IMG/VR virus record: IMGVR_UViG_2541047931_000014
Coordinates: 1 to 12,415 of that record
Source: a virus
Lineage: Duplodnaviria > Heunggongvirae > Uroviricota > Caudoviricetes
DNA length: 12,415 bases
Direction: 5' to 3' (one strand)
In this document: in pieces, positions 1 to 12,415 of the stretch
How the letters are laid out: each line of letters starts with the position of its first letter
Numbering within the stretch: position 1 is the first letter of the stretch
Translations under genes and position numbers: made by a program
Notes under the pieces: model-generated
Seen by the model: the letters and a program-made list of their open reading frames with translations, nothing else
Database searches by the model: none
What the model was told of the DNA's origin: nothing

Positions 1-177
1 GCGGAGGTAATACACCGTAAGAGCTGGAAAAACCGTGCAGAAGTGGAACTGGCCACACTCACGTGGGTGGACTGGTATAACAATCGACGATTGCTGGAAA
101 GGCTGGGCCATACTCCTCCGGCAGAAGCAGAAAAAGCTTATTATGCTTCCATCGGAAACGATGATCTGGCAGCCTGA
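1..177 (+). CDS. IS3-family transposase (OrfB-like), C-terminal fragment; 5' part lies outside the window
   Basis: Frame 1 reads ...LTWVDWYNNRRLLERLGHTPPAEAEKAYYASIGNDDLAA* with stop TGA at 175-177. The W-Y-N-x-R-R-L-x-x-x-L-G-x-x-P-P-x-E pattern is the conserved C-terminal tail of IS3-family DDE transposases (recalled family knowledge). The track ORF 35..370 is a different frame. Confidence 0.6.
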   Translation, partial: AEVIHRKSWKNRAEVELATLTWVDWYNNRRLLERLGHTPPAEAEKAYYASIGNDDLAA

Positions 178-280
178 GTTCACAGATAAAACACTCTCCA
201 GGAAACCCGGGGCGGTTCAATCCGTACGGGGACGGGATACCGTTTTAATTCACAACAGCGAACAGAGTAATTACAGGGGA
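1..280 (+). mobile_element. Right end of an IS3-family insertion sequence (partial); exact terminal inverted repeat not identified
   Basis: The transposase ORF ends at 177 and the next gene's RBS and start are at about 275-287, so the IS terminus must lie in about 180-280. I cannot place the inverted repeat without its left-end partner. Confidence 0.4.
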
Positions 281-284
281 AGGC

Positions 285-782
285 ATGACAAAGCTGACCA
301 TAAACAGAAAACCGAAGGGCATTTACGGCACGCCGCAGAAAACAGCACAGGCGGCGCAGCAGCAGAATAAAACCACATCGGCGCATAAAGTGATGCCAGA
401 TAACCAGAACACACAGCAGAAGCTCACAGGAGCAACACCGCGGCGGCGTATGACCAAACAGCAGCGTAAAAACCGCAGACGCGTTAACCGTCTTATTGAG
501 CTATGGCCTGAATTATTCAGCCAGGAATCACCTAAGCCGCTTAAGGTGGGGATATTTGACGACCTGATACAGGATATTGCCGCGAGAGGTATTTCACTCG
601 GACAGGGAACACTACGCGCAACGCTGGCGCGTTATGTGCAGACTCCGCGCTATTACCGCGCCCTGGTAGCTGGTGGCGCGCGTTACGACCTGAAAGGCCA
701 GCCGTGCGGCGAGGTAACACCACTACAACAGACGCACGCAGGAAAACTACTGGAGGAGATGAATGGAAATAGTAAGAAATGA
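285..782 (+). CDS. ProQ/FinO-family RNA-binding protein (FinO-like RNA chaperone) with a basic, Gln-rich N-terminal extension
   Basis: ATG at 285 preceded by AGGGGAAGG. The C-terminal half reads [14 protein letters not shown]...[37 protein letters not shown], matching the ProQ/FinO domain signature as I recall it from E. coli ProQ (PLKIGIF.DL ... Y ... G..R.DL.G.PCGE). The N-terminal ~75 aa are K/R/Q-rich and low complexity. Confidence 0.75.
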
Positions 783-1179
783 TCACGCACATGGTCGCCG
801 TGCAGGTGATCACATTGTGGATGAAATTGCGGAAAAACAAAGAGTTGACATTGTTGTCAGTGTCACAGTCGAGAGCGCGAAGCGCCAAAATAAGCGTATA
901 AATGATCATTCAGATGTACATGGTGTGATCACTCGTTTACGCCAGACTTTTGTAACTCGTGAAGAGATGATTGAAGCTATTGACCAGCATACAGCATGTA
1001 TCAGCGTCAGGGATATACCGGAGATCATTGCTAACTACTTCATGATCACCAGACGCCTTTACCGGAGAAAAGACAAGAGCACGGTTAACCGTCTCCTGAT
1101 GTCTGATATTCGCGAATACCTGCAAGAAAGGGGCTATGTGAATCCACCAGAACAGCACTACGGAAGAGTCGGAGGCTAA
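763..1179 (+). CDS. Hypothetical protein, 138 aa, translationally coupled to the upstream FinO-like gene
   Basis: ATG at 763 preceded by GGAGGAG (752-758); overlaps the 3' end of the FinO-like gene by 20 nt. No recognisable motif. Confidence 0.5.
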
Positions 1180-1419
1180 CTAAAACCCTGTACCGAAGAG
1201 CGGCGGCGCGATGGGGTGAAGTAATGCAGTTGGGGAACTGACAAGGAACGGTATTACATATCAATGCGACGACTGGAATGTTCCAGGAAGGCACAGAGGC
1301 CACCGAAGCAACCGGATAATTTAGAAGACCTGAAACGGTCGCTTAAACGCACTGAAAAAGAAATGGGGATAGATGGGATCGGGAAATCAGTATGGCGTAA
1401 CTACCAGAAGTAAGCACAG

Positions 1420-1445
1420 AGCCGGAGCAATCCGGCTTTTTTTTG
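1420..1445 (+). terminator. Rho-independent terminator
   Basis: AGCCGGA-GCAA-TCCGGCT hairpin (1420-1437) followed by an 8-T run (1438-1445). Confidence 0.65.
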
Positions 1446-1544
1446 GCTGAAATCAATCAATCTGTTTTTGTGATAGAAATATGTTTATCTACCACTTTTT
1501 CAGATCAATAATGTGCATAGTTTAGTCAGTAAGAGGAAATTGCT

Positions 1545-1751
1545 GTGAATTGTATTAACGACCTGAACACAGGCGATGTCAGAGGTGGTTCCGTTCATCT
1601 GGATGCACAGACCGTGATGCGCCTTAAGCAGTACAGAATCGACCATGTGAACAATCACCCTGATCAGCCATTACCAGGCGTGGCGCAGATTGTCAGACAT
1701 GCCGTAAACGCCTGGCTTAATCAGAATGGTTTTGCATCGGGGGGTGAGTAA
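1545..1751 (+). CDS. Small hypothetical protein (68 aa); possible small DNA-binding regulator (speculative)
   Basis: GTG start at 1545 with AAGAGGAAA about 8 nt upstream, lying 100 nt after the terminator in an AT-rich promoter-like stretch. The segment GSVHLDAQTVMRLKQYRID ... VAQIVRHAVNAWL loosely resembles a strand-helix-helix layout, but this is not a confident call. Confidence 0.4.
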   Translation: MNCINDLNTGDVRGGSVHLDAQTVMRLKQYRIDHVNNHPDQPLPGVAQIVRHAVNAWLNQNGFASGGE

Positions 1752-1847
1752 TGAATCGCTGGTACAGCATCAAAGCAGAGGGACGCCAATGTTATCTAAC
1801 TCAGGTTTTATGAATTCTGACTCCCGATTCAAAATAGGAGGTTACTA

Positions 1848-4379
1848 ATGCCAGTCGTACCAACAGTATCCGGACGTCAGGTTGAGAGCCGTGGAGTTCA
1901 GTCAGCAGGCTTACAGACGTTTTCTCAGCCAGGTATTAGTGATGCTTTTGTTCGTGCAGGAGCAGAAGCAATTGATATTCTGGGTCAGGCAAAACAGCGT
2001 GCCAATATTGCCTTGGTTCAGGAGGCATCCCTTAAACTCAGTCAGACAGGCAGTGATCTGCTGAATAATCCTGAAACAGGATTGCTTAACCTGAAAGGGA
2101 AAAATGCTATTGGAAAAGGCCATGAGTATACACAGCAGTTTGATGCTCAGATCGAACAACTGGCTATGTCGCTGCCGGATGAACAGGCTCGTAATGCTTT
2201 CATGCAGCAGGCGCAGCAGCAGCGTATTCAGTTCGCTACGCAGGCCGGGAGGTACGAGATAGGGCAAATAAATGCCTACGAAGAAGGCCAGTTTCAGGCT
2301 ACGCTGCTGAACAATGGTAAAAATGCCGCAGCATTGTATGGCGACAACGCAGCATACATATTGGCTAATACGCAAACTTTCCAGCAAATTGAGGAGTACG
2401 GCATTGCGCATGGCTGGAGCGACGAGCAGATTCGGGCCAGGAAAATCGAGTTTAAAGAAGCAACAGCAAAAGCAACTGCTCAAAATGCTATTGGAGCAAA
2501 CTATCTTCAGGTAAGACAGCAAAACGGCGAGTTAAGCGATACTGCTGCTGGAGCTCGCCGTGCTGTAGCAGATAGTGGATCTTCCGATCGTATCCGCGGT
2601 ATACGCAACAATAACCCCGGCAATCTTGAATACAGCAAAACTAATCCGTGGGTTGGGCAGACTGGTGATGATGGTCGCTTTGCCAAATTCGAAACCCCTG
2701 AACACGGTATTCGTGCATTAGGGCGGAACCTGATGTCGTATCAGCGGCAGGGTATTGATACCGTCAGTGAGATAATTAATCGCTGGGCACCGCCCACTGA
2801 TAAAAATGACACAATGTCGTATATCAAAGCAGTGTGCGAACAACTTGGCGTTTCTGCTGATGAGCCTCTCGATGCATCTAATCCGGATACCCTGAAGGCG
2901 CTTTGTGCAGCCATTATCCATCATGAAAACGGTAGCCAGCCATACAGTGATCAGCAGTTAACTGCTGGTGTTAGTGCCGCGCTGGGGCTTTCTCAGCTAC
3001 CGACAAAAAATAAACGTTATACCGGTGTAGCCTGGTTCGATGCTTTAAGTGAATCAGATCAGGCCAGCGTGTTGCGACAGACTGATGCACTAGCCAGACA
3101 ACAGCAGGCTGAATATAAAACGATGCTCGACAGCCGGGTTCGCGATGCGACGGCTGCGTATATGCGTGGCGTTGAATTTCCTAACCCACCTGGTGAGGAT
3201 GATTTTATTGCAGCTTATGGAGTCAGAGAAGGAAACCTGCGATATACCGAGTTTAAGAATACGCAGATCGCCGGACAGTATATAGGCTCTTTCCGCAACA
3301 TGCCGACAAGCAGCATTACAGCATATGTTGAGCAATTACGCCCGGATACTGGTGATACAGGGGAGGGGTATGCGTCTCGTGCGGAGTTATTCGACCGGGT
3401 ATCGGCGGCAGCCACGAAGGTAATAACCCAGAGGCAGAATAATCCGTTTAGTGCAGCGGTGGAAATCGGATCCTATAAGCCGATCACCAGCAACAACCCT
3501 GACGACATCACTGCTGAGGTGGCTAACCGTTTCTCGTCGCAGGAAAGCTTACGCGCGTTGGGAATTAATGCCCCAATCCTCAATAGTGAAGAGGCGGCTG
3601 CGCTGGCACAGCAGGTGCGCGGCACTCAGAACGTTGACCAGACAATTAAACTATTGCAGAGCATGGGGGAAAAGCTACCTGCGCCAGCAATACGGCAGGT
3701 GGCATCTGTAATTGCTCCGAACAGTGCAGCAACAGCCTATTCTGCGCTGCTGCTGGGCACGCCGGATAATCAGTACGATAACACCAGGCCGTCGATCCCA
3801 TATAGTCAGTTCATCGGGTATAAGCCGACGATGAACAAGTACGACGTTGCAAAGGTTATTCTTTCCGGTGACCAACTACTGAATCCGACGAAGGCTATGA
3901 AGAATGCGGGCATAACTCCGGTACAGTTGCCGAGCGAAGATAAAATGAAGCGCGCTTTCGACGAACAGGTTGGTAATGCATTTGCCCGTAACCCAGAGAC
4001 GCGCCAGATCAGTTATAGCCTTTTCAAAGCCGCTTACGCAGGAATCGCTTATCAGTCTGGTAATACGTCTATGACGAGCACAGATGCGGTTAACTCCGAT
4101 GTGGCGGAGAAAGCTGCGCAGTACGCAACAGGCGGTGTATACAAGAGATTTAATGGTGGTGATGTTGTAATGCCTTTCGGCATGGATGAATCCACTTTCA
4201 AAGATCGCTATACCACATCAGCGAAACAAGCACTGAAAGATGCCGGACTTAACGTAAATGCAGTGTCAAACTTCACACCAGTTAATATCGGCAATAACCG
4301 GTATCGGCTGGTAAATGGTAGCGGACGCTGGGCAACAGATCCCAGAACCAATGAAGCTATTGTCGTGAGGGTTGAATAA
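1848..4379 (+). CDS. Large hypothetical protein (843 aa); phage ejection/internal-virion-like, with a conserved-looking NNPGN region that may be a cell-wall-hydrolase-like domain
   Basis: ATG at 1848 with AGGAGG at 1836-1841; 2.5-kb uninterrupted frame; Ala/Gln/Gly-rich. RIRGIRNNNPGNLEY...GRFAKFETPEHGIRALGRNL...INRWAPP lies at about nt 2590-2950. No Walker A or helicase motifs. Confidence 0.85.
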   Translation: MPVVPTVSGRQVESRGVQSAGLQTFSQPGISDAFVRAGAEAIDILGQAKQRANIALVQEASLKLSQTGSDLLNNPETGLLNLKGKNAIGKGHEYTQQFDAQIEQLAMSLPDEQARNAFMQQAQQQRIQFATQAGRYEIGQINAYEEGQFQATLLNNGKNAAALYGDNAAYILANTQTFQQIEEYGIAHGWSDEQIRARKIEFKEATAKATAQNAIGANYLQVRQQNGELSDTAAGARRAVADSGSSDRIRGIRNNNPGNLEYSKTNPWVGQTGDDGRFAKFETPEHGIRALGRNLMSYQRQGIDTVSEIINRWAPPTDKNDTMSYIKAVCEQLGVSADEPLDASNPDTLKALCAAIIHHENGSQPYSDQQLTAGVSAALGLSQLPTKNKRYTGVAWFDALSESDQASVLRQTDALARQQQAEYKTMLDSRVRDATAAYMRGVEFPNPPGEDDFIAAYGVREGNLRYTEFKNTQIAGQYIGSFRNMPTSSITAYVEQLRPDTGDTGEGYASRAELFDRVSAAATKVITQRQNNPFSAAVEIGSYKPITSNNPDDITAEVANRFSSQESLRALGINAPILNSEEAAALAQQVRGTQNVDQTIKLLQSMGEKLPAPAIRQVASVIAPNSAATAYSALLLGTPDNQYDNTRPSIPYSQFIGYKPTMNKYDVAKVILSGDQLLNPTKAMKNAGITPVQLPSEDKMKRAFDEQVGNAFARNPETRQISYSLFKAAYAGIAYQSGNTSMTSTDAVNSDVAEKAAQYATGGVYKRFNGGDVVMPFGMDESTFKDRYTTSAKQALKDAGLNVNAVSNFTPVNIGNNRYRLVNGSGRWATDPRTNEAIVVRVE

Positions 4380-6439
4380 TGTCTGATGTTTTTTCTTTGG
4401 CTCCAGAAGGTCAGGCATGGATTGACGACAAAACAGTTGCCAACCCAGCAAGGCCAGAAGACTACGATCCGACTCCCTTCCAGGGTTCAGGTACTGCACT
4501 TTTTAGCGGCGTGGCGGAGGGGGCTCTCGGTCTCGCGCAGTCTGCCGTCGGATTCAGCAAGCGCCTGATTAGCGATCCGGCATTTACCGCAGACGTGGCA
4601 CCGACTGTTAACATTTTTCGGGAGATGTTCCCTGATGCTGACAAAACACTGAATGATACATACGACACGATCGGAAAACAGTTACAGGATGCCCGCAGCT
4701 ATGTGAAGCCTGATGCAGGCAGCCAGGGAATGGCGGCAGAGGTATTAAATGAGCTTGGTAAATTTGTTCCTGCAATCGGAACAACTATGTTTGGCGGTCC
4801 CCTCATCGGCGCTGCTACAACCTTCAGTTCTACGTATGAGCAATCCTATCAGGATTTTAAAGGGAAGGGAGTAGACGAGGCTACGGCGCGTAACCTGGCA
4901 ACGCAGCAGAGCCTTTTCAATGCTGTGGGTATGGCCTTACCCGCTGCCGTCGGCACCACACTGGCAACGCGCATTGCCTCAGGTGTGGCAATCAACACCG
5001 GATTCGGTGGACTGAACCGTTACTCAGTAGGCGCAACACTGGAGGAAAAAGGCTACACGGAGATGGCAAAACAGTACCGGGTATTTGACGGTCAGGCGAT
5101 GTTAGTCGATGCCGTTTTAGGCGGGGTCTTTGGTGGCGTTCATCACCTGACTACCCATAATAACCATGATGGTACAGAGTCGAACATTTCTGCAGAAGAA
5201 ATAAAATCAACTTTTGGTGAACATTATCAGCAATCTCCTGATGGTAACATTGAGTCAATGGTTCGTGATTTATCTGATTCAGGAGTAATAGAACTTATTA
5301 ATGAACCAGCAATAAAAAATAGTGATGGAGAAATACTTCTGAATAAAGGTCATGTGACAGTAGCTTCTGGAAAAGAACCAATAATAAGAATAAATATTAA
5401 TGGATTAAAAGACCATGAAGAACTGTTAGAAACCCTTCATCACGAGGCGCTTCATCTTGAGCAGCGCCATTACCCTGACTGGAAGGCCAGAAAGCTAGCT
5501 AATGCTGTACTTAAATCTGCAAACAAGCATTCTGACTATCCTGAATTTGCATATGGGATGTCACAATATTATGAATATAAGAAAAGGGGTGAGTACCCTG
5601 AAACATATCCTGAGTGGTTGTACGCTGAAGAAGTTGCCGCACATGCAGTAAATCCATCTCTAAAGACAAGCGTTTCATCATGGGAAAAAATTATTTCAGG
5701 TTTTAAAGCCTATATATTCAGATACAGTGGTATTCAGGTTGGAACCGTTACACCTGAGCAGTTACGGTTACTCGTAAGTATGCGTCTTCGCAATATGAAA
5801 CTGGAAGCCGCAGTAGAAAAAGTTTTTGGTATCCGGGCGAGGGAAAGAATAAAACCAAGCGATATTGATGCAGCCCACATTTTGAATGAGGGGCTTCATT
5901 ACGATATTGAATCGTCACCAGTGCTTCACACCAGCAATGAGAGCATCAACAGCCATGTTGACGCCATGGATGAAGCATACAGGCAACTTAATGATGGTCA
6001 GCCTGTAAATGTTGGGGGGATGGCGCGAGGGCTTGATGGTCCATTGCGATCAGATATATCTGATACTTACCAAGAGCAATACCATGAAATACAAAAGGTT
6101 TTTGAAGAAAATGGTGTCAGATATGAAACATCATCAGAGCCAATTAGTGAATCGCCTGTCCCTCGTGCTGAAAGTGCTTTCTCATCGGCTGGTGAACACA
6201 GAGGGGACGTCAGCGTTGATCCAGATACAGGGCAGGTTCTCTCATCCAACAGCTATGACCTTATGGCTGCCAGGGACATGGCTGTTGCCAATCCTGAGCT
6301 GACTATAGCTCACCCGGAAACCGGAAACCCGACAAAACTTTCTGATCTCCTGGCTGAGTTGGATGAACAGATTAAGACAGTCCAGAACGAATCGAAGGTT
6401 TATTCTGTAGCGGCAGCGTGCTTCTTGAGGAACCCATAA
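4379..6439 (+). CDS. Large hypothetical protein (686 aa); Gly-rich hydrophobic N-terminal half and a low-GC C-terminal segment containing an HEXXH (HEALH) motif
   Basis: ATG at 4379 overlaps the upstream stop (TAATG, 4377-4381). Gly/Ala-rich hydrophobic stretches (GTTMFGGPLIGAATTF, MALPAAVGTTLATRIASGVAINTGFGG, VDAVLGGVFGGV). HEALH is encoded at 5441-5455 within a segment of about 35% GC (about 5160-5760) versus roughly 45-57% in the flanking coding sequence. Confidence 0.85.
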   Translation: MSDVFSLAPEGQAWIDDKTVANPARPEDYDPTPFQGSGTALFSGVAEGALGLAQSAVGFSKRLISDPAFTADVAPTVNIFREMFPDADKTLNDTYDTIGKQLQDARSYVKPDAGSQGMAAEVLNELGKFVPAIGTTMFGGPLIGAATTFSSTYEQSYQDFKGKGVDEATARNLATQQSLFNAVGMALPAAVGTTLATRIASGVAINTGFGGLNRYSVGATLEEKGYTEMAKQYRVFDGQAMLVDAVLGGVFGGVHHLTTHNNHDGTESNISAEEIKSTFGEHYQQSPDGNIESMVRDLSDSGVIELINEPAIKNSDGEILLNKGHVTVASGKEPIIRININGLKDHEELLETLHHEALHLEQRHYPDWKARKLANAVLKSANKHSDYPEFAYGMSQYYEYKKRGEYPETYPEWLYAEEVAAHAVNPSLKTSVSSWEKIISGFKAYIFRYSGIQVGTVTPEQLRLLVSMRLRNMKLEAAVEKVFGIRARERIKPSDIDAAHILNEGLHYDIESSPVLHTSNESINSHVDAMDEAYRQLNDGQPVNVGGMARGLDGPLRSDISDTYQEQYHEIQKVFEENGVRYETSSEPISESPVPRAESAFSSAGEHRGDVSVDPDTGQVLSSNSYDLMAARDMAVANPELTIAHPETGNPTKLSDLLAELDEQIKTVQNESKVYSVAAACFLRNP

Positions 6440-9195
6440 TGAAACAGGCATGTGTTGAAGCTATTGCGCAGACACTTGGTCGCCAGCCAAAGGCTGATGA
6501 GCTGAAAAATATTGAAGATCGTATCAAAGAAGCTGTGCAGCATGTGCACAGAAAGAATGCAAAAGAAGGCAAAAGTGGTATTCCTGATGCTCAAACATAC
6601 ATGGATGCAGCAGAACTGGTACGCCAGCGTGTGGTTCATGATGTGTACAAGAAAAGACAGCGTGTTGCCCAGAATGCGATCGCCATCAGTAAAATTACTG
6701 ACACTCTCGATGCTAACATCCCGCCTGATCAGCAGACACCTGTTAATTTGCAGCAGTTTATTTTTGCTGGCCGACGATCGAGAGACAAAGCTGATATCTC
6801 CGTTACTTCTGCTGAAGAGCTTGCAATTGGGGCATATCAGGACTGGTCCCGTCAGCTCAGTGCTGAACTTCTAAAAGCAGGTGATGACGTCCGCAAATTC
6901 TTCGAGCAGAGCAGGGCGCTTGGAGAGCAGCGGTTTCGGAGTGTATTCGACAGGCAGGCGGCAAAGTCTGCACAACTCCAGATCCTGAAAGAAATTTATG
7001 GCGAAGATACCGGGAATCCCCTGGCGAAGAAAATTGCACAGATTTGGAAGGATGTAACAGGGCGTGTTCGTCATGAGATGAACGACAACGGCTTTGACAT
7101 AGGCCTGCGAGAAGACTGGCATACGCCATATGTGGATGATGCTGACCTTATTCGCAATGCCGGGCGCGAAGAATGGCTGGCATCGTTACCAGTGGCAGAG
7201 CAAGCTACAGTACGTCTTTCAGGTCGCCAGCCACCTATTGAGTTTGCCCGCCAGAAATGGGTTGATGACGCTTACAACACGCAGGATCGCAGCAATTACG
7301 TTAATCCTGACGGCAGCATTATGAATGACGTCGAGTACCGTCAGGCACTGGAAGCGATCTTTGAAACGAAGGCCACTGATGGGGCAAACAAAATTGAGCC
7401 CGGTACATTTATGGGAGACGGAGGAATAAAGAGCCGTGGTTCTCAGCACAGGGTGATGGCGTTCAAGGATGCGCAGTCACACTTCGCCTATATGGAGCGA
7501 TACACTCAGCAGCCGCTGGTGGGGGTGATGATGTCGCACCTGCAATCATCATCCAGGGATTTGGGCGTCGTTAAAGCCTTTGGTCCGGACGCCGAAAGAA
7601 ACTTTTCCCTGGTACTGGATCGCATCTATAAGCGCGCAGTAACAGGCGGGAAACGCAAAAAAGAAATGGAGGATGAGGCCAAATTAGTTGCCCGTATGTT
7701 CAACTCAATGGCTGGCCTAAATGGTGTCGCTTCATCGAGTGTGTTCTCTTCAGCAGTTGGTGGTCTGCGTAACCTGATGACCAGCGCCATGCTTGGCACC
7801 AGCGTACTGACAGCAACCAGCGACCAGGCAATTATGCGGGCAAATGCGCAGGCGCTGGGCTTTACCCGTGGTGGAATGCGGCTTTCCGTTAACACTATCA
7901 AAAACCTGTTTAGTGGAGATGCCAAAAAGGCGAATGCTGAACTCGGTCTGCTGGTGGATTCACATGCTGCTGTGGTTTCGAAAATGGGCGGGTTTGACTT
8001 GTCTCGCGGCATAACTGGCTGGTTCGCAGAGAAGACACTGAAGTGGTCCGGGCTGATCGCTATGGACCGCGCAAACAAAGCGTCGTTTGGTCTCCTGATG
8101 TACAAAAACATTGGCGAGCTGACCAGAAAATTTAAGACGCTGGACGATATAAAAGGAACCGATAAAACCATTCTGGCTAACAAGGGATGGAGCAATGAGG
8201 ACTGGGCCATCATGGCAGCGGCAGAACTCAGGCCGATGACTACTGCCGGGCATATGGGGATGACGCCAGACGCGATTTACGCTGTGCCCGATAACGTAAT
8301 CGCCGACATTATGGCAGACCGTATTGCCCGGATTCGTGCCGGGAGTGAAAAGGCACTGGCAGCCCTTGGAGATCTCCCTCCAGAACGCCTGAAACGGATG
8401 AAAGAAGCATTCGACGCAGAGGCTGAGCAGACCATCACGCGCATGATTCGTAATGCACGCGCTGAAGCAGCCCAGAAATTGCTGGGAATTACGCACGGTG
8501 AGATGACCAATGCTGTGACCACCGCTACGGGTATTGATACATATGCCCATGACGATGCTGGCGAGTTAATGAAGAGCTTCATGCTCTTCAAAACAACCCC
8601 ATTTGCTGGATTTCGGCAACTTGTTAACAGAACACGGGATTTGGACACCGTTCCGGCCATTAAATTTCTGGCCTCATATATCGGGGGAACAACTCTTGCT
8701 GGTATGTTTGCGATCCAGATGAACAGTTTGTTAAATGGTAATGATCCGCTGGATATGACAAAACCAACCACATGGGTTCAGGCTTTACTGAAAGGTGGTT
8801 CGTTCGGTATCTACGGTGATTTTATTTTCCAGGACCATACGCAATATGGCTCCAGCATCGGTGCCACTATGGGTGGCCCTGTGTTGAGCTTTGCAGAGCA
8901 GTTAACAAAATTACTGATTACTAACCCACAGAAGGCTCTACAGGGTGAAGAAACATCATTCGGTGCCGATGCACTGAAAACAGCCCGCATGATCACCCCA
9001 TTCGCAAACCTGTGGTATGCGAAAGCGATAACCAATCACCTGATATTGCAACAACTTCAGGAGATGGCAAACCCTGGTTACAATGATCGAGTAAGGGACC
9101 GCGCGCAACGGGAGTTCGACATAACGAGTTGGTGGGAACCGGGTGCTATTGCGCCACGTAGAGCACCGGATTTTGGAAAGGCGGTAGGGGAATGA
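6439..9195 (+). CDS. Large hypothetical protein (918 aa from the ATG at 6439; the track's 6418 start is an upstream in-frame GTG); ejection/internal-virion-like
   Basis: ATG at 6439 overlaps the upstream stop in the same TAATG arrangement (6437-6441), with GAGGAA 7 nt upstream. 2.75-kb frame. No nucleotide-binding motifs seen. Confidence 0.85.
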   Translation: MKQACVEAIAQTLGRQPKADELKNIEDRIKEAVQHVHRKNAKEGKSGIPDAQTYMDAAELVRQRVVHDVYKKRQRVAQNAIAISKITDTLDANIPPDQQTPVNLQQFIFAGRRSRDKADISVTSAEELAIGAYQDWSRQLSAELLKAGDDVRKFFEQSRALGEQRFRSVFDRQAAKSAQLQILKEIYGEDTGNPLAKKIAQIWKDVTGRVRHEMNDNGFDIGLREDWHTPYVDDADLIRNAGREEWLASLPVAEQATVRLSGRQPPIEFARQKWVDDAYNTQDRSNYVNPDGSIMNDVEYRQALEAIFETKATDGANKIEPGTFMGDGGIKSRGSQHRVMAFKDAQSHFAYMERYTQQPLVGVMMSHLQSSSRDLGVVKAFGPDAERNFSLVLDRIYKRAVTGGKRKKEMEDEAKLVARMFNSMAGLNGVASSSVFSSAVGGLRNLMTSAMLGTSVLTATSDQAIMRANAQALGFTRGGMRLSVNTIKNLFSGDAKKANAELGLLVDSHAAVVSKMGGFDLSRGITGWFAEKTLKWSGLIAMDRANKASFGLLMYKNIGELTRKFKTLDDIKGTDKTILANKGWSNEDWAIMAAAELRPMTTAGHMGMTPDAIYAVPDNVIADIMADRIARIRAGSEKALAALGDLPPERLKRMKEAFDAEAEQTITRMIRNARAEAAQKLLGITHGEMTNAVTTATGIDTYAHDDAGELMKSFMLFKTTPFAGFRQLVNRTRDLDTVPAIKFLASYIGGTTLAGMFAIQMNSLLNGNDPLDMTKPTTWVQALLKGGSFGIYGDFIFQDHTQYGSSIGATMGGPVLSFAEQLTKLLITNPQKALQGEETSFGADALKTARMITPFANLWYAKAITNHLILQQLQEMANPGYNDRVRDRAQREFDITSWWEPGAIAPRRAPDFGKAVGE

Positions 9196-9533
9196 AAAAG
9201 TTAAATACACCAACCAAAAGAGTTGGGGGGCTTCTGATTGTCATTGGAATTATATTTATACTTGCATCTATAATAGAAATATCAAGTAATGAGTTTGCTA
9301 TTTCTGATAGTCCATATTATCGATCGCTAAATGCATATGATATTATTTTTATGTATTTAGAGCGAATTACAGATACTTTCATCATGACTCTAACATTTCA
9401 AACATGGAGTAGCCGTTTCAGTATATTAATGTTAGTAGGGTTTTGTTTATTTATTGTTGGTGTTCTTATTTCATATTTTTACGATGCTGGAATTGGCAGG
9501 GTTGTTAAGTGGATAAGAACGGGTAATTGGTGA
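9192..9533 (+). CDS. Small integral membrane protein (113 aa, two predicted transmembrane helices), very low GC; candidate exclusion/immunity-type cargo
   Basis: ATG at 9192 overlaps the upstream stop (ATGA, 9192-9195). Hydrophobic stretches LLIVIGIIFILASII and FSILMLVGFCLFIVGVLISYF. GC is visibly much lower than in the upstream genes. Confidence 0.7.
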   Translation: MKKLNTPTKRVGGLLIVIGIIFILASIIEISSNEFAISDSPYYRSLNAYDIIFMYLERITDTFIMTLTFQTWSSRFSILMLVGFCLFIVGVLISYFYDAGIGRVVKWIRTGNW

Positions 9534-9864
9534 TTATAAGCAAGCTATTGGTTTCATTGTTTATATCGTTGTCGGAACTTTTTCAACTGACAGCAATCAT
9601 AGCCGGGCTTGAATCGTGGTGGGGATTGCACTGGATAATTGCAGCCCCATTGCTTTCATCGTGAGCTATATTCCATTTGTTGGAGCGATTGTTGGTATGG
9701 TTGGCGCTATGGATGTATGGTGTTGGGAGTGGTGGCAGGCTGGCCTTCTATTCTTTGGCGGATCATCTTTGCTATTGTCAGCGGTGGAATGTCATCATTT
9801 TTCGAATGGCTATCATTCAGAAAAAGAGCGTGACATGTCACAGGCCGCTTTCGCGGCCTTGTTT

Positions 9865-10026
9865 TTAACGAATGCCACCACCGCCCGGGCGGGAATCCGC
9901 AGAACGCCCACCGCAGCGGGAGCCGTCAGCGGCAGTATCGCTGTCGTGCTGACAACGACCGGCAAAGGCCTGAGTTGAAGCTACCAGAGACAACAAAACG
10001 AACAGTGCAGCAAATGCTTTTTTCAT
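9865..10026 (-). CDS. Candidate small secreted peptide (53 aa) with an N-terminal Sec-type signal peptide
   Basis: Minus-strand ATG at 10026-10024 encodes MKKAFAALFVLLSLVASTQAFA|GRCQHDSDTAADGSRCGGRSADSRPGGGGIR, with an AxA-type cleavage site. Candidate promoter TTGACG-N16-TATAGA lies just upstream on the minus strand (about 10040-10070). It is antisense to overlapping plus-strand ORFs, so assignment is uncertain. Confidence 0.35.
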   Translation of the reverse strand: MKKAFAALFVLLSLVASTQAFAGRCQHDSDTAADGSRCGGRSADSRPGGGGIR

Positions 10027-10096
10027 TGTGAAATTTCCATCTATAAGCCACCTCGATGTGGCGTCAATGAATGTAGCACTGACTTTTGTTTCGTCC

Positions 10097-10119
10097 ACAA
10101 AAAAGCCCGCGCTGCGGGC
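10097..10119 (-). terminator. Rho-independent terminator acting on the minus strand
   Basis: GC-rich hairpin GCCCGC-GCT-GCGGGC (10105-10119) preceded on the plus strand by an A-run (10097-10104), so the minus strand reads hairpin then TTTTTTGT. Confidence 0.5.
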
Positions 10120-10728
10120 TTACCAAAACTTGTACCACGGGGATTTATCCTTCAATGGACAATCCTTCCATCGTGTGGCCAGCCATTCATATTCTTTGTC
10201 TTTTCTTCAGTACCGGCTTTGCATCTTCTACACCCTGAAAGATGTCGTTTTATGGTGTATCTGATGATTTATTCCCTAACAATAGATATTCGAAAAATTA
10301 ATCAGTTAAAACAATTATTTGGATAATTTCAGGTAAAAACTATCTTAATCTTCTGGTGGATCTCAATGCGCCGTGACGGTATCGGGATTAAGGGCGTGGA
10401 TATTCGCGATATATGCCGCTACACCCCTCAACAGTAATAGATATGCGCTTTTCACTCTCTCCTTTCACTGCTGAGAACGGCAACAACGTGCCACAGGAAC
10501 GCGCTGTAATCGATTCTGACGCACTTAATTGCGTTGGGTAATGGTTTGCCAGCCTGTGGGGGTAACTCTGTTTTATGAGGCTTTGGCTATAGTGCAAAAA
10601 TGCACTTTGTCTTGCCTCTCAATTTGATGAGACTGGAACGACAACAGGACAGACCACCAGCAACAGTTACCGTATTCAGCCGTTCTGTGGCACCAGTGGA
10701 ACTATCCACCCCTGCTTTCAGCAATGTG

Positions 10729-10782
10729 TTTGCGGGTTATTTTGGGGCGTTTGCGGGTTATTTGGGATGTTTTGCGGGTTAT
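10729..10782. repeat. Iteron-like array: three perfect 12-bp direct repeats TTTGCGGGTTAT at 21-bp phasing
   Basis: Copies at 10729-10740, 10750-10761 and 10771-10782, separated by 9-bp spacers. Confidence 0.85.
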
Positions 10783-10857
10783 GCGATGCTTGAATAATGA
10801 ACAGTGCATTTTGCAACATATTGATACTAAAGAACAAAAAATAGTTAGCACGCTAAG

Positions 10858-10884
10858 ATAACCCGGTAACCCGCATAACCCGCA
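10858..10884. repeat. Three tandem inverted copies of the iteron core
   Basis: ATAACCCGG (10858-10866), TAACCCGCA (10867-10875) and ATAACCCGCA (10875-10884) are reverse complements of TGCGGGTTAT. They are separated from the direct array by a 75-bp AT-rich spacer. Confidence 0.75.
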
Positions 10885-11406
10885 CTGTTTTGTATATATA
10901 TACGAAAAATTGCATTCAGGAGGGGGGATCGAAATCCCTACAACCCATTGCTTATGGGACCGCCGCCTCGTCAAATTTTTACACCCGCGAAATAAAAAAT
11001 ACTTCACGCTGGTGGGCATGATGCTGATATGAGAGGCTTCCATAACGCCACCATTCGAAACTATGCAAATCTGCATAGAAAAGGGGATGCCTGATACAAT
11101 ACCCTCGCCCGATAAAATCACACCGATAAACTCATCTGCCACGAGTAGAAAGAGCGAACGAACCCGATACGCAGTAATGCTGGTCGGGTCCAGCTTTTTA
11201 AGGCGGCTGTAGATATCAGGCCATCCGTGATCATCCACCAGCGTAATTGCTGAACGCTTTAAAAAAACGTGTACATAAGGGTGTACATAATCAAAAACCG
11301 CATTAGAAAGAAACCAGCTACAATGCGGCATTGAAGCCAACACTCTACAAACAGATTCAACATCGAATAACTCGTAACGCCAATTCTTACTTTTCCGCCT
11401 TCACAA

Positions 11407-11438
11407 ATGCCGCCACTCAAACAGAGCGGCATTTTTCT
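11407..11438 (+). terminator. Rho-independent terminator with no plus-strand ORF feeding into it (orphan)
   Basis: ATGCCGC - 11-nt loop - GCGGCAT (11407-11431) followed by TTTTTCTT. All three plus-strand frames are closed immediately upstream. Confidence 0.5.
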
Positions 11439-11530
11439 TCCCCGCAACATTCAATTCTGTTTTGCGTGCCTGCTCCAGATTTTGCGATGTTTTTTTGCCC
11501 AGCACACTGAGAACGTGAGATACTCACAAC

Positions 11531-11546
11531 TGTATATAAATACAGT
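11531..11546 (+). promoter_or_regulatory. LexA operator (SOS box) in the dinD promoter
   Basis: CTGTATATAAATACAG matches the CTGT-N8-ACAG consensus and sits 45 nt upstream of the dinD start, overlapping a TATATAAAT -10-like element. Confidence 0.8.
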
Positions 11547-11590
11547 TACAGATTTACTTTCTTTGCAATTGATATCACATGGAGTGGGCA

Positions 11591-12415
11591 ATGAACGAAC
11601 ATCATCAACCTTTTGAAGAGATAAAACTGATTAATGCAAACGGAGCAGAACAATGGTCAGCAAGACAACTTGGGAAACTACTGGGTTATTCAGAGTATCG
11701 TCACTTTATACCTGTATTAACGCGCGCCAAAGAAGCCTGTGAGAACAGTGGTCACACAATTGATGACCATTTCGAGGAGATCCTCGATATGGTCAAAATT
11801 GGCTCAAATGCCAAAAGAGCATTAAAAGACATCGTACTCTCCCGCTATGCCTGTTACCTGGTAGTACAAAACGGCGCCCCTGCGAAACCGGTCATTGCGG
11901 CAGGGCAGACTTATTTTGCTATCCAGACCCGACGGCAGGAGCTTGCTGACGATGAAGCATTTAAGCAACTTCGTGAAGACGAAAAGCGTCTGTTTCTGAG
12001 AAATGAGTTGAAAGAACATAACAAACAATTGGTTGAGGCAGCACAGCAAGCTGGGGTAGCGACAGCTACTGATTTCGCCATATTTCAGAATCATGGTTAC
12101 CAGGGGCTGTATGGTGGATTAGATCAGAAAGCTATTCATCAGCGGAAGGGGCTGAAAAAGAATCAGAAGATCCTGGATCATATGGGTTCAACAGAACTGG
12201 CGGCTAATCTCTTTCGAGCTACCCAAACAGAAGAAAAACTCAAGCGGGATGGCGTGAATTCAAAACAGCAAGCAAACACCACACACTTTGACGTGGGTCG
12301 CAAGGTGAGGCAAACCATTCAGGAACTTGGCGGAACCATGCCTGAGGAGTTGCCGACCCCGCAGGTCAGCATCAAGCAGTTGGAAAACAGTGTAAAAATT
12401 ACAGAGAAGAAATAG
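11591..12415 (+). CDS. dinD: DNA-damage-inducible protein D (DinD), apparently intact at 274 aa
   Basis: ATG at 11591 with GGAGTGGG just upstream (the track's 11579 start is an upstream in-frame alternative). The sequence MNEHHQPFEEIKLINANGAEQWSARQLGKLLGYSEY... matches E. coli DinD as I recall it, and the LexA box directly upstream supports SOS regulation. Stop TAG at 12413-12415. Confidence 0.8.
   Translation: MNEHHQPFEEIKLINANGAEQWSARQLGKLLGYSEYRHFIPVLTRAKEACENSGHTIDDHFEEILDMVKIGSNAKRALKDIVLSRYACYLVVQNGAPAKPVIAAGQTYFAIQTRRQELADDEAFKQLREDEKRLFLRNELKEHNKQLVEAAQQAGVATATDFAIFQNHGYQGLYGGLDQKAIHQRKGLKKNQKILDHMGSTELAANLFRATQTEEKLKRDGVNSKQQANTTHFDVGRKVRQTIQELGGTMPEELPTPQVSIKQLENSVKITEKK

Follow-up and report, generated by a model that had tools for sequence, protein, structure and literature searches.

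Proteins with a FinO domain are known to regulate the transfer and replication of plasmids via antisense RNAs, and on mobile elements the family acts through cis-antisense RNAs; the F-plasmid protein carries an N-terminal extension that is disordered (PMC9977716). ProQ/FinO and PerC have been listed, as annotation, among the accessory genes of an E. cloacae phage-inducible chromosomal island (PICI) (PMC13612085), and our literature search found no functional work on FinO in PICIs beyond this annotation note. The packaging site of phage P1, pac, is a 161-bp element in pacA with seven Dam hexamers (TGATCA/G, arranged 4 + 3), a site for IHF and, at the centre, the site of cleavage (PMC10028697). 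Here we analysed a window of 12,415 nucleotides (nt), the whole of the stretch from IMG/VR record IMGVR_UViG_2541047931_000014, which contains a finO-like gene of 165 amino acids (aa) and, overlapping its 3′ end, an open reading frame (ORF) of 138 aa with homology to P1. A preliminary description of the sequence had read the two as a translationally coupled RNA-regulatory module whose cognate RNA could lie at 9540-11590. Our analysis points elsewhere. The explanation that we regard as probable is that of a selected satellite FinO, with a leader antisense RNA of intact sister islands as its most plausible ligand and the 138-aa ORF as an insertion by-product.

The FinO-family gene and its island

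The 165-aa product matched PF04352 with 86.7 bits against a gathering score of 27 (E=1.3e-24), its residues 64-162 covering profile positions 5-102 of 109 (Pfam). Among solved structures, its sequence matched the N-terminal domain (NTD) of ProQ (ProQ-NTD, PDB 5nb9, E=1.9e-14) and F-plasmid FinO (1dvo, 4.3e-11), along with further FinO-domain chains (6s10, which is ProQ-named, 3mw6 and 7rgt-u of RocC), NMB1681 being among the matched proteins. These matches bear out the family assignment of the preliminary description, which was in fact already known, as RefSeq labels the gene 'ProQ/FINO family protein'. The protein falls far below the cutoffs of both the F-type FinO subfamily (NF010317, 57 bits versus 136) and the ProQ equivalog (NF003434, 59 bits versus 127) in NCBIfam, and it therefore belongs to a separate, distinct subfamily, which is uncharacterised. 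We predict that it is a functional-looking FinO-family RNA chaperone.

Residues 1-63 form a basic, Gln/Thr-rich tail with 14 K+R, one D+E and 10 Q, as the preliminary description had said. The same description had called this extension unusual, a view that did not hold up: the tail is conserved across the island FinO family and parallels the extension of F-plasmid FinO. In an alignment of 20 homologs with 50-89% identity, I6 and R8 were invariant, the motif LTINRKP was nearly invariant, and the basic block MTKRQRKNRRR(V/I)NRL was well conserved. In comparisons of finO with five PICI-type relatives, dN/dS ranged from 0.20 to 0.24 for the tail and from 0.18 to 0.23 for the domain; against a sixth relative from a non-PICI island (L009; sampled loci are referred to by such numbers), the values were 0.43 and 0.14. 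The tail, like the domain, is thus under purifying selection (dN/dS ~0.2).

The distribution of finO was determined in a collection of 5426 complete E. coli genomes; a species-level locus scan gave only four loci, and co-occurrence rests mainly on this collection and on the sampled loci. Homologs of finO were found in 1078 of the genomes and were all chromosomal, and copies with at least 80% nt identity, the PICI type, were present in about 263. The majority class (60-80% nt identity, ~815 genomes) resides in other islands, of the YfjJ/inovirus-Gp2 type and in adhesin islands. At two loci of this class (L008 10992-11500 and L009 10843-11367) a convergent hypothetical gene lies downstream and the leader antisense RNA described below is absent. 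About one in five E. coli genomes carry the distinct subfamily, some 260 of them in its PICI-type form. That it is a recurrent, selected satellite gene extends the plasmid antisense-RNA theme to satellite biology.

Identical or near-identical copies of the island in the window were present in 45 complete E. coli genomes. Copies that had not been hit by an insertion sequence (IS) are integrated as a ~19-kb island at the yicC/dinD site (L001), at tRNA-Gly (L002 and L014) and in E. albertii (L010). From the left, these IS-free copies encode an integrase, a hypothetical protein, an AlpA-like helix-turn-helix (HTH) protein, Rha, AntA or GIY-YIG, BRO-N and YlcI (minus strand); then an icd-like product, a hypothetical protein, DUF4222, a DUF927 primase, SSB, FinO, the 138-aa ORF and a frameshifted PerC; and finally a 68-aa ORF, large proteins of 843, 686 and 918-925 aa, and a small ORF that looks membrane-like. 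The sister copies L001, L002, L010 and L014 all have an integrase, an AlpA-like regulator, a primase/replication module, a small size and att flanks, and none has a full set of phage morphogenesis or lysis genes; the architecture is that of an enterobacterial PICI-like satellite. The mobile-element setting given in the preliminary description was thus correct, with the island being integrative and PICI-like. Two diverged relatives differ in cargo: L006 has a full set of capsid, portal, TerS and TerL genes at the cargo position, like a capsid-forming PICI, and L007 has PICI-like small morphogenesis genes.

Within these islands, finO is an optional backbone gene (primase-SSB-FinO-PerC), in most cases paired with perC, at the distal end of the replication operon. 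Elsewhere the gene is followed by an intact PerC in L007 (11555-11842 of that locus, with a 4-nt overlap), L015 (E. ruysiae) and L016 (E. albertii), by a frameshifted PerC in L020, and by an unrelated 83-aa ORF in L006. FinO and PerC seemingly travel as an accessory pair, missing from sister islands without one or the other.

The window itself holds only the island part to the right of SSB, owing to an IS3-family element that cuts the island within the last SSB codons, 50 bp upstream of finO, and that replaces or interrupts all that lay to the left of the SSB 3′ end. Its transposase gene orfB runs to 177 and the IS itself to about 229-244, and homology to L001 starts at window position 220. 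The resulting IS-finO junction occurs in none of the 5426 genomes. In the F plasmid, finO is inactivated by an inserted IS3, which makes a curious parallel to the IS3-family end near the island gene.

P1-like DNA between finO and perC

The two ORFs of the preliminary description (285-782 and 763-1179, 165 and 138 aa) do exist and overlap by 20 nt (763-782). Of the two products, the domain search supported only the first with a FinO/ProQ domain; the second had no Pfam match and is labelled 'hypothetical protein' in RefSeq. Its PHROG matches fell in two unrelated families, terminase at aa 5-68 and Ant antirepressor at aa 57-127. By these matches the ORF is an in-frame fusion that joins a PacA-internal fragment to ~65 aa from the N terminus of a P1-like Ant. 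It has neither the ORF6N nor the KilAC/ANT domain (no Pfam match), whereas the Ant of RCS47 has ORF6N at 117-201 and ANT at 259-360. In P1 relatives of the RCS47 and 673R5 type the order is pacA, pacB, (icd), ant, with ~3 kb between pac and the start of ant; the pac + ant mosaic would be explained if one P1-like fragment had undergone an internal deletion. A link of the ant fragment to P1 c4-RNA control was considered and rejected: no C4 model matched, and the P1 c4 targets lie upstream of icd, not in ant.

The DNA homology of finO to its relatives stops at window position 765. Past this point the window protein lacks the basic C-terminal tail of the relatives (…LNEKRKRQRR…) and ends in …EEMNGNSKK. 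Because the homology ends here, the C-tail is lost and the decayed PerC follows directly after the mosaic, we conclude that ~400 bp of P1-like DNA was inserted between finO and perC in this lineage, clipping the C-tail of FinO, with the 20-nt overlap as the recombination junction.

Mismatches between the pac half and P1 pacA were distributed as 5/11/10 over codon positions 1/2/3, the aa identity (71%) was below the nt identity (83%), and omega was ~0.4-0.46 with low dS. This pattern, with no third-position excess, is the signature of DNA-level rather than protein-level constraint. Two independent indels have occurred in the pac half of an otherwise ~99%-identical lineage, +1 A in a poly-A run (L010-L012) and -2 (L013). 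They shorten the frame from ATG-763 to 28 or 42 codons in four of the eight copies examined (L010-L013), where gene callers choose an alternative ATG at 779 in another frame; the variants with an alternative start have 132-133 aa. The full 138-aa ORF was found in 45 genomes only, always at ≥95% identity, and the full-length homologs in a database of 5.8 billion proteins all came from E. coli or E. albertii and were ≥93% identical; other matches there covered the Ant half alone. AlphaFold2 (15 sequences) gave the 138-aa protein a mean predicted local distance difference test score (pLDDT) of ~50. We take the supposed partner to be, in all appearance, a by-product of P1-DNA insertion and not a FinO cofactor.

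The pac-like segment aligned without gaps over 156 bp to P1 90729-90884 with 26 mismatches, and other punaviruses matched equally well. The curated P1 record places the IHF site at 90784-90796 and four primary pac cleavage positions at 90804-90813, both inside the aligned stretch. The equivalent of the IHF box (835-847) is identical at 13 of 14 positions, and that of the cleavage positions (855-864) at 9 of 10. Intact TGATCA hexamers stand at 780-785, 807-812, 903-908 and 926-931, so that four of P1's seven are kept (2+2 versus 4+3); the first, third and sixth are replaced by GTAAGA, TGGTCG and TGTACA. P1, 673R5 and the other punavirus copies examined keep all seven. Judged by alignment, the homology comprises essentially the functional pac site, stopping on both sides, without the rest of pacA. 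In the E. coli collection the segment was present in 598 genomes, at 548 places on P1-like plasmids (≤85.3% identity to the window) and 59 on chromosomes. Forty-five of the chromosomal places belong to the window lineage at ≥95% identity, and none lies between 85.3% and 95%.

Whether the pac/ant segment is an inert recombination scar of a past encounter with a P1-like phage, with segment and ORF decaying, is in our judgment evenly balanced. The lost hexamers, the frame-breaking indels, the frameshifted perC alongside, the frameshifts of finO in some copies and the IS insertions nearby all fit such decay. Boundaries that coincide with those of functional pac, a conserved IHF box and cleavage core, and the lack of any gap against P1 over 156 bp despite ~17% divergence do not.

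It is also possible, and we hold this tentatively, that the segment is a working packaging signal, at which PacAB of P1-like phages, whether resident or infecting, would cleave around 855-864 and package the island or rightward DNA by headfuls, the 138-aa ORF being incidental, as pac is in pacA. The almost exact coincidence of the 156 bp with functional pac (161-162 bp) and the near-identity of the IHF box and cleavage positions argue for this reading, as do the depressed dS, the absent third-position bias, and the retention of the segment in all 45 genomes and in E. albertii despite ~15% divergence from all 548 plasmid-borne copies. The island has no terminase of its own, P1-like plasmids occur in about 10% of E. 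coli genomes, and strain SCEC020022 has both the island (chromosome) and a P1-like plasmid prophage with an ant-type gene (NZ_CP032892.1 / NZ_CP032890.1). Work cited in PMC10028697 further indicates that chromosomal pac sites boost P1 packaging. Against a working site, three of the seven Dam hexamers are destroyed, and hexamer mutation lowers P1 packaging (PMC10028697). In addition, the natural +1 and -2 indels alter the spacing between hexamer blocks, the structural cargo is epsilon15-like rather than P1-like, and our literature search gave no precedent for a naturally occurring P1 satellite or for capture of pac. Encounters of the island with a potential P1-like helper do occur naturally, in at least one strain (SCEC020022).

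If active, a natural chromosomal P1 pac copy in a satellite would offer P1 a new way of mobilising the island and the neighbouring chromosome (dinD-spoT-recG side). If P1 packages the way pacA is transcribed, toward lox, packaging from this site would proceed to the right, across the cargo and, in situ, on into dinD-yicG-ligB.

Candidate RNA ligands of the island FinO

In intact islands, a candidate cis-antisense RNA of ~80 nt with two stem-loops covers the leader, ribosome-binding site (RBS) and ATG of the icd-like gene (L001 16432-16520, minus strand). Equivalents were found in L002, L006, L007, L010-L015 and L018, and none in the window. The minus strand of the L001 element folded at -50.7 kcal/mol (z=-5.9), compared with -34.8 kcal/mol (z=-2.3) for the plus strand. 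Across eight distinct islands nearly all of 27 consensus pairs are kept on the minus strand, with compensatory changes (GC/UG/CG and GC/CG), whereas the plus strand has only 17 pairs with C.A breaks; the G.U pairs of the minus strand would be A.C on the opposite strand. The loops are hypervariable and the stems conserved. Read from the sequence, the minus strand has an extended -10 (TGnTATGAT) upstream and, after the second stem-loop, which is GC-rich, a tract rich in U. A covariance model built from the element scored 90-105 bits on ten loci that coincide with, or lie close to, the sequences it was trained on; L015, an independent match, scored 45 bits. The model found nothing in the window, L008, L009, L016, L017 or P1-like loci. 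No C4/CI-type, FinP or other Rfam family was matched in the window or the full sister island at the gathering threshold, or in the island under permissive settings, where a SymR-like match stayed below threshold (27 versus 61 bits).

The sense promoter of the icd-like operon (TTGACG-18-TACATT, L001 16333-16412) lies within the inverted repeats TGTAAGACAC / GTGTCTTACA, with a third copy upstream. The repeats are likely to be operator sites of the island repressor, next to the divergent ylcI/ynfO-family gene.

By analogy with FinO/FinP-traJ and FopA/Inc-repZ, the island FinO would bind a stem-loop RNA with a 3′ tail and promote antisense pairing. Its most plausible ligand would be the ~80-nt RNA over the RBS and start codon of the icd-like gene, the first gene of the same operon, and antisense control of this operon could provide feedback on satellite replication. 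The window copy may be uncoupled from this native control, because the IS3-family element removes the operon leader and the antisense RNA upstream of finO. The antisense RNA element was present in 1373 E. coli genomes, and five of the six sampled islands that carry it have no finO; the leader RNA is therefore a general feature of the satellite superfamily, of which FinO is at most an optional enhancer. The specific proposal that this RNA is the ligand of FinO we regard as rather doubtful. The preliminary description had, in this respect, a plausible general idea in a cognate antisense RNA and placed it wrongly, since the best candidate lies outside the window.

Several further observations weigh against the explanation that we prefer. 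On the side of the RNA, the scarcity of finO among carriers is matched by FinO homologs in islands without the leader RNA (L008, L009, L016 and L017), so that the association is neither necessary nor sufficient. On the side of the protein, the window copy of finO is located behind an IS, and a promoter scan of window positions 1-1900 found no sigma-70-like site. The gene is frameshifted in two sampled copies (L010 and L011). The basic C-tail is lost, which may matter, as a C-terminal extension can be essential in FinO-family proteins such as RocC. The AlphaFold2 model of FinO (20-sequence alignment, mean pLDDT ~50) supports only a disordered tail and a FinO-like order of secondary structures. 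As for the view of the 138-aa ORF as a by-product, GGAGG 6 nt upstream of ATG-763 is a good Shine-Dalgarno sequence, and the ant half has an omega of ~0.22 and lies within some ORF in every variant. For these reasons a small Ant-N-domain protein may be made, although the full 138-aa protein is not maintained.

Alternatively, the RNAs on which the island FinO acts could be those of a helper phage or of the host, targeted in trans for interference or host takeover, and not an island antisense RNA. The imperfect co-distribution of FinO and leader RNA would be expected here, FinO travels with PerC as an accessory pair beside variable cargo, and FinO/ProQ proteins bind foreign RNAs (PMC9977716). 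We consider this unlikely: no candidate target was identified, and the characterised FinO proteins of mobile elements (FinO, FopA) are specific for cis-encoded antisense RNAs (PMC9977716).

A composite scenario can also be drawn, in which a satellite that captured P1 pac and an antirepressor N-domain is packaged by P1-like plasmid prophages and carries epsilon15-type ejection proteins, exploiting two phage types that are unrelated, while FinO and the leader antisense RNA form a FinOP-like circuit of 'fertility inhibition' for satellite replication. As a whole we find it rather improbable.

The region 9540-11590, which the preliminary description had taken for structured and non-coding, contains small PHROG-matching ORFs, and its last ~240 nt are ordinary chromosome (the yicC 3′-end duplicate and the yicC-dinD spacer) found in ~4800 genomes. 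The part before these is patchily conserved, and no more than 11 genomes had ≥80% of the whole region. No Rfam family matched in 9400-11700 even at E≤5, nor window-wide at the gathering threshold, and the leader antisense RNA model gave no match in 9540-11590. By these comparisons the region does not track finO and is an unrelated right-end region. The preliminary description had itself named a downstream ORF not conserved with finO as grounds for refuting its reading, and this is what we found. The view of FinO and the 138-aa protein as a translationally coupled module for RNA regulation, with its RNA in this region, is almost certainly wrong: although the 20-nt overlap and the GGAGG are present and both ORFs co-occur in the 45-genome lineage, the partner is missing from >95% of FinO-bearing genomes (45 versus 1078), other genes follow finO in L006, L007, L015, L016 and L020, the partner is a P1 pac/ant mosaic with its frame broken in half of the sampled copies, and the proposed RNA region is made of att/flank and moron ORFs without an RNA match.

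Remaining features and comparison with known systems

Coordinates are collected in Table 1. The 843-aa cargo protein, which contains a transglycosylase-like segment (aa ~244-406), is 80% identical along its entire length to one from an epsilon15-like podovirus of Salmonella. P1 Dar-type head proteins were considered as an identity for the three large proteins and rejected, these being epsilon15-like instead. No capsid or terminase genes were found among the island genes of the window lineage; a satellite with only helper-type internal/ejection proteins is unusual. At the right, dinD forms the chromosomal flank. The island L007, which occupies the same site, has no dinD. Because dinD has a BRO-N domain, it may be what remains of an element that was once at the yicC attachment site.

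Table 1. Features of the 12,415-nt window, in window coordinates.
Feature	Position	Strand	Basis
3′ end of IS3-family element (IS629/IS1203-like)	1-235	+	megablast matches, in records of phages and E. coli, to the ends of IS629/IS3 transposases
Last ~29 nt of SSB and SSB-finO spacer	220-284	+	100% match to L001 20001-20065; SSB coding sequence ends at L001 20029
finO-like gene, 165 aa	285-782	+	Pfam, PDB matches, family alignment, dN/dS
Basic, Gln-rich N-terminal tail of FinO	aa 1-63, nt 285-473	+	family alignment
FinO/ProQ domain	aa 64-162, nt 474-770	+	PF04352
GGAGG (752-756) and ATG (763-765) of the 138-aa ORF, at the finO-family/P1-derived junction	752-765	+	sequence, junction mapping
138-aa chimeric ORF (predicted)	763-1179	+	PHROG matches, RCS47 Ant domains, frameshift variants
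P1 pac-site homolog, 156 bp ungapped, 83% identical to P1 90729-90884	780-935	+	DNA alignment, curated P1 features
ant/roi 5′ fragment (codons ~5-69) of RCS47/673R5-type punaviruses, ~81% identical	949-1143	+	DNA homology
PerC-family gene, decayed (frameshifted), ancestral downstream neighbour of finO	1188-1413	+	RefSeq annotation in L001/L002; tblastn with intact L007 PerC; PF06069 on L007 protein
Strong intrinsic terminator closing the finO-perC transcription unit	1418-1449	+	equivalent hairpins after PerC or the 83-aa ORF in L007, L006
Island cargo: 68-aa ORF, three large virion/ejection-type proteins (843, 686, 925 aa), 113-aa membrane-like ORF	1545-9533	+	PHROG
Three large cargo ORFs	1848-4379, 4379-6439, 6418-9195	+	PHROG virion and ejection families
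Island right end and chromosomal junction: small moron-type ORFs, patchy sequence, yicC 3′-end duplicate (att), yicC-dinD spacer from ~11352	9540-11590		homology, PHROG
Small ORF	9616-9978 (also 9616-9975)	+	strong PHROG match; overlaps minus-strand ORF 9868-10098
GC-rich terminator-like hairpins	9842-9859, 10121-10103	+, -	sequence
Small ORF, 77 aa, signal-peptide-like	9868-10098	-	full-length phrog_3117 match, 1e-53; 'membrane associated' moron family
dinD, chromosomal flank	11579-12415	+	NCBIfam NF008573, 485 bits

Our results are thus mainly corrective, in that neither the 'partner' nor the 'RNA region' is what it was first read to be. Residual interest lies in the natural P1 pac copy in a satellite and in the covarying antisense RNA at the head of the finO operon.

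Like P1 pac, which lies inside pacA, the pac-like segment has the IHF box, the cleavage core and TGATCA hexamers (four of them) in P1 positions, and the two are collinear over 156 bp, with 83% of the bases identical. It differs in having 2+2 of the 4+3 hexamers, in the absence of pacA/pacB nearby and in its location in a chromosomal satellite. Some satellites carry a copy of their helper's packaging site, such as cos-carrying Staphylococcus aureus pathogenicity islands (SaPIs). If the pac copy works, the island would resemble these in mimicking a helper packaging signal without encoding a terminase; here, however, the signal would be a P1-type pac, and we found no described natural satellite of that type in the literature.

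With PICIs and capsid-forming PICIs the island shares the integrase, AlpA-like HTH protein, Rha/Ant/BRO, icd-like gene, DUF4222, DUF927/DUF5906 primase and PerC, a size of ~19 kb and several att sites, and its sister L006 has the capsid/portal/terminase set. The window lineage differs in its cargo of three epsilon15-like virion/ejection proteins without capsid or terminase genes.

Chromosomal ProQ provides the best PDB match of the island FinO, through its N-terminal domain (5nb9). The island protein, in contrast, has no linker or Tudor C-terminal domain, scores far below the ProQ cutoff (59 versus 127 bits) and is island-borne. FopA/Inc-repZ of IncI plasmids and other plasmid FinO-like replication controllers likewise pair a FinO-domain protein with neighbouring replication genes, and antisense control of a replication operon is plausible in both cases (PMC9977716). 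The target in the island would, however, be the leader of the icd-like/primase operon.

The F-plasmid FinOP system, in which FinO and FinP act on the traJ leader, differs from the island in that the island protein is below the NCBIfam FinO cutoff (57 versus 136 bits), the N-terminal tails of the two fail to align, and the element is a phage satellite rather than a conjugative plasmid, whose candidate RNA also occurs without FinO. Nevertheless, both have a FinO domain after a ~60-aa basic, disordered N-terminal extension and a gene placed distally, at the end of a long mobile-element operon, and in the intact islands a candidate two-stem-loop cis-antisense RNA lies over the RBS of the first gene of that operon.

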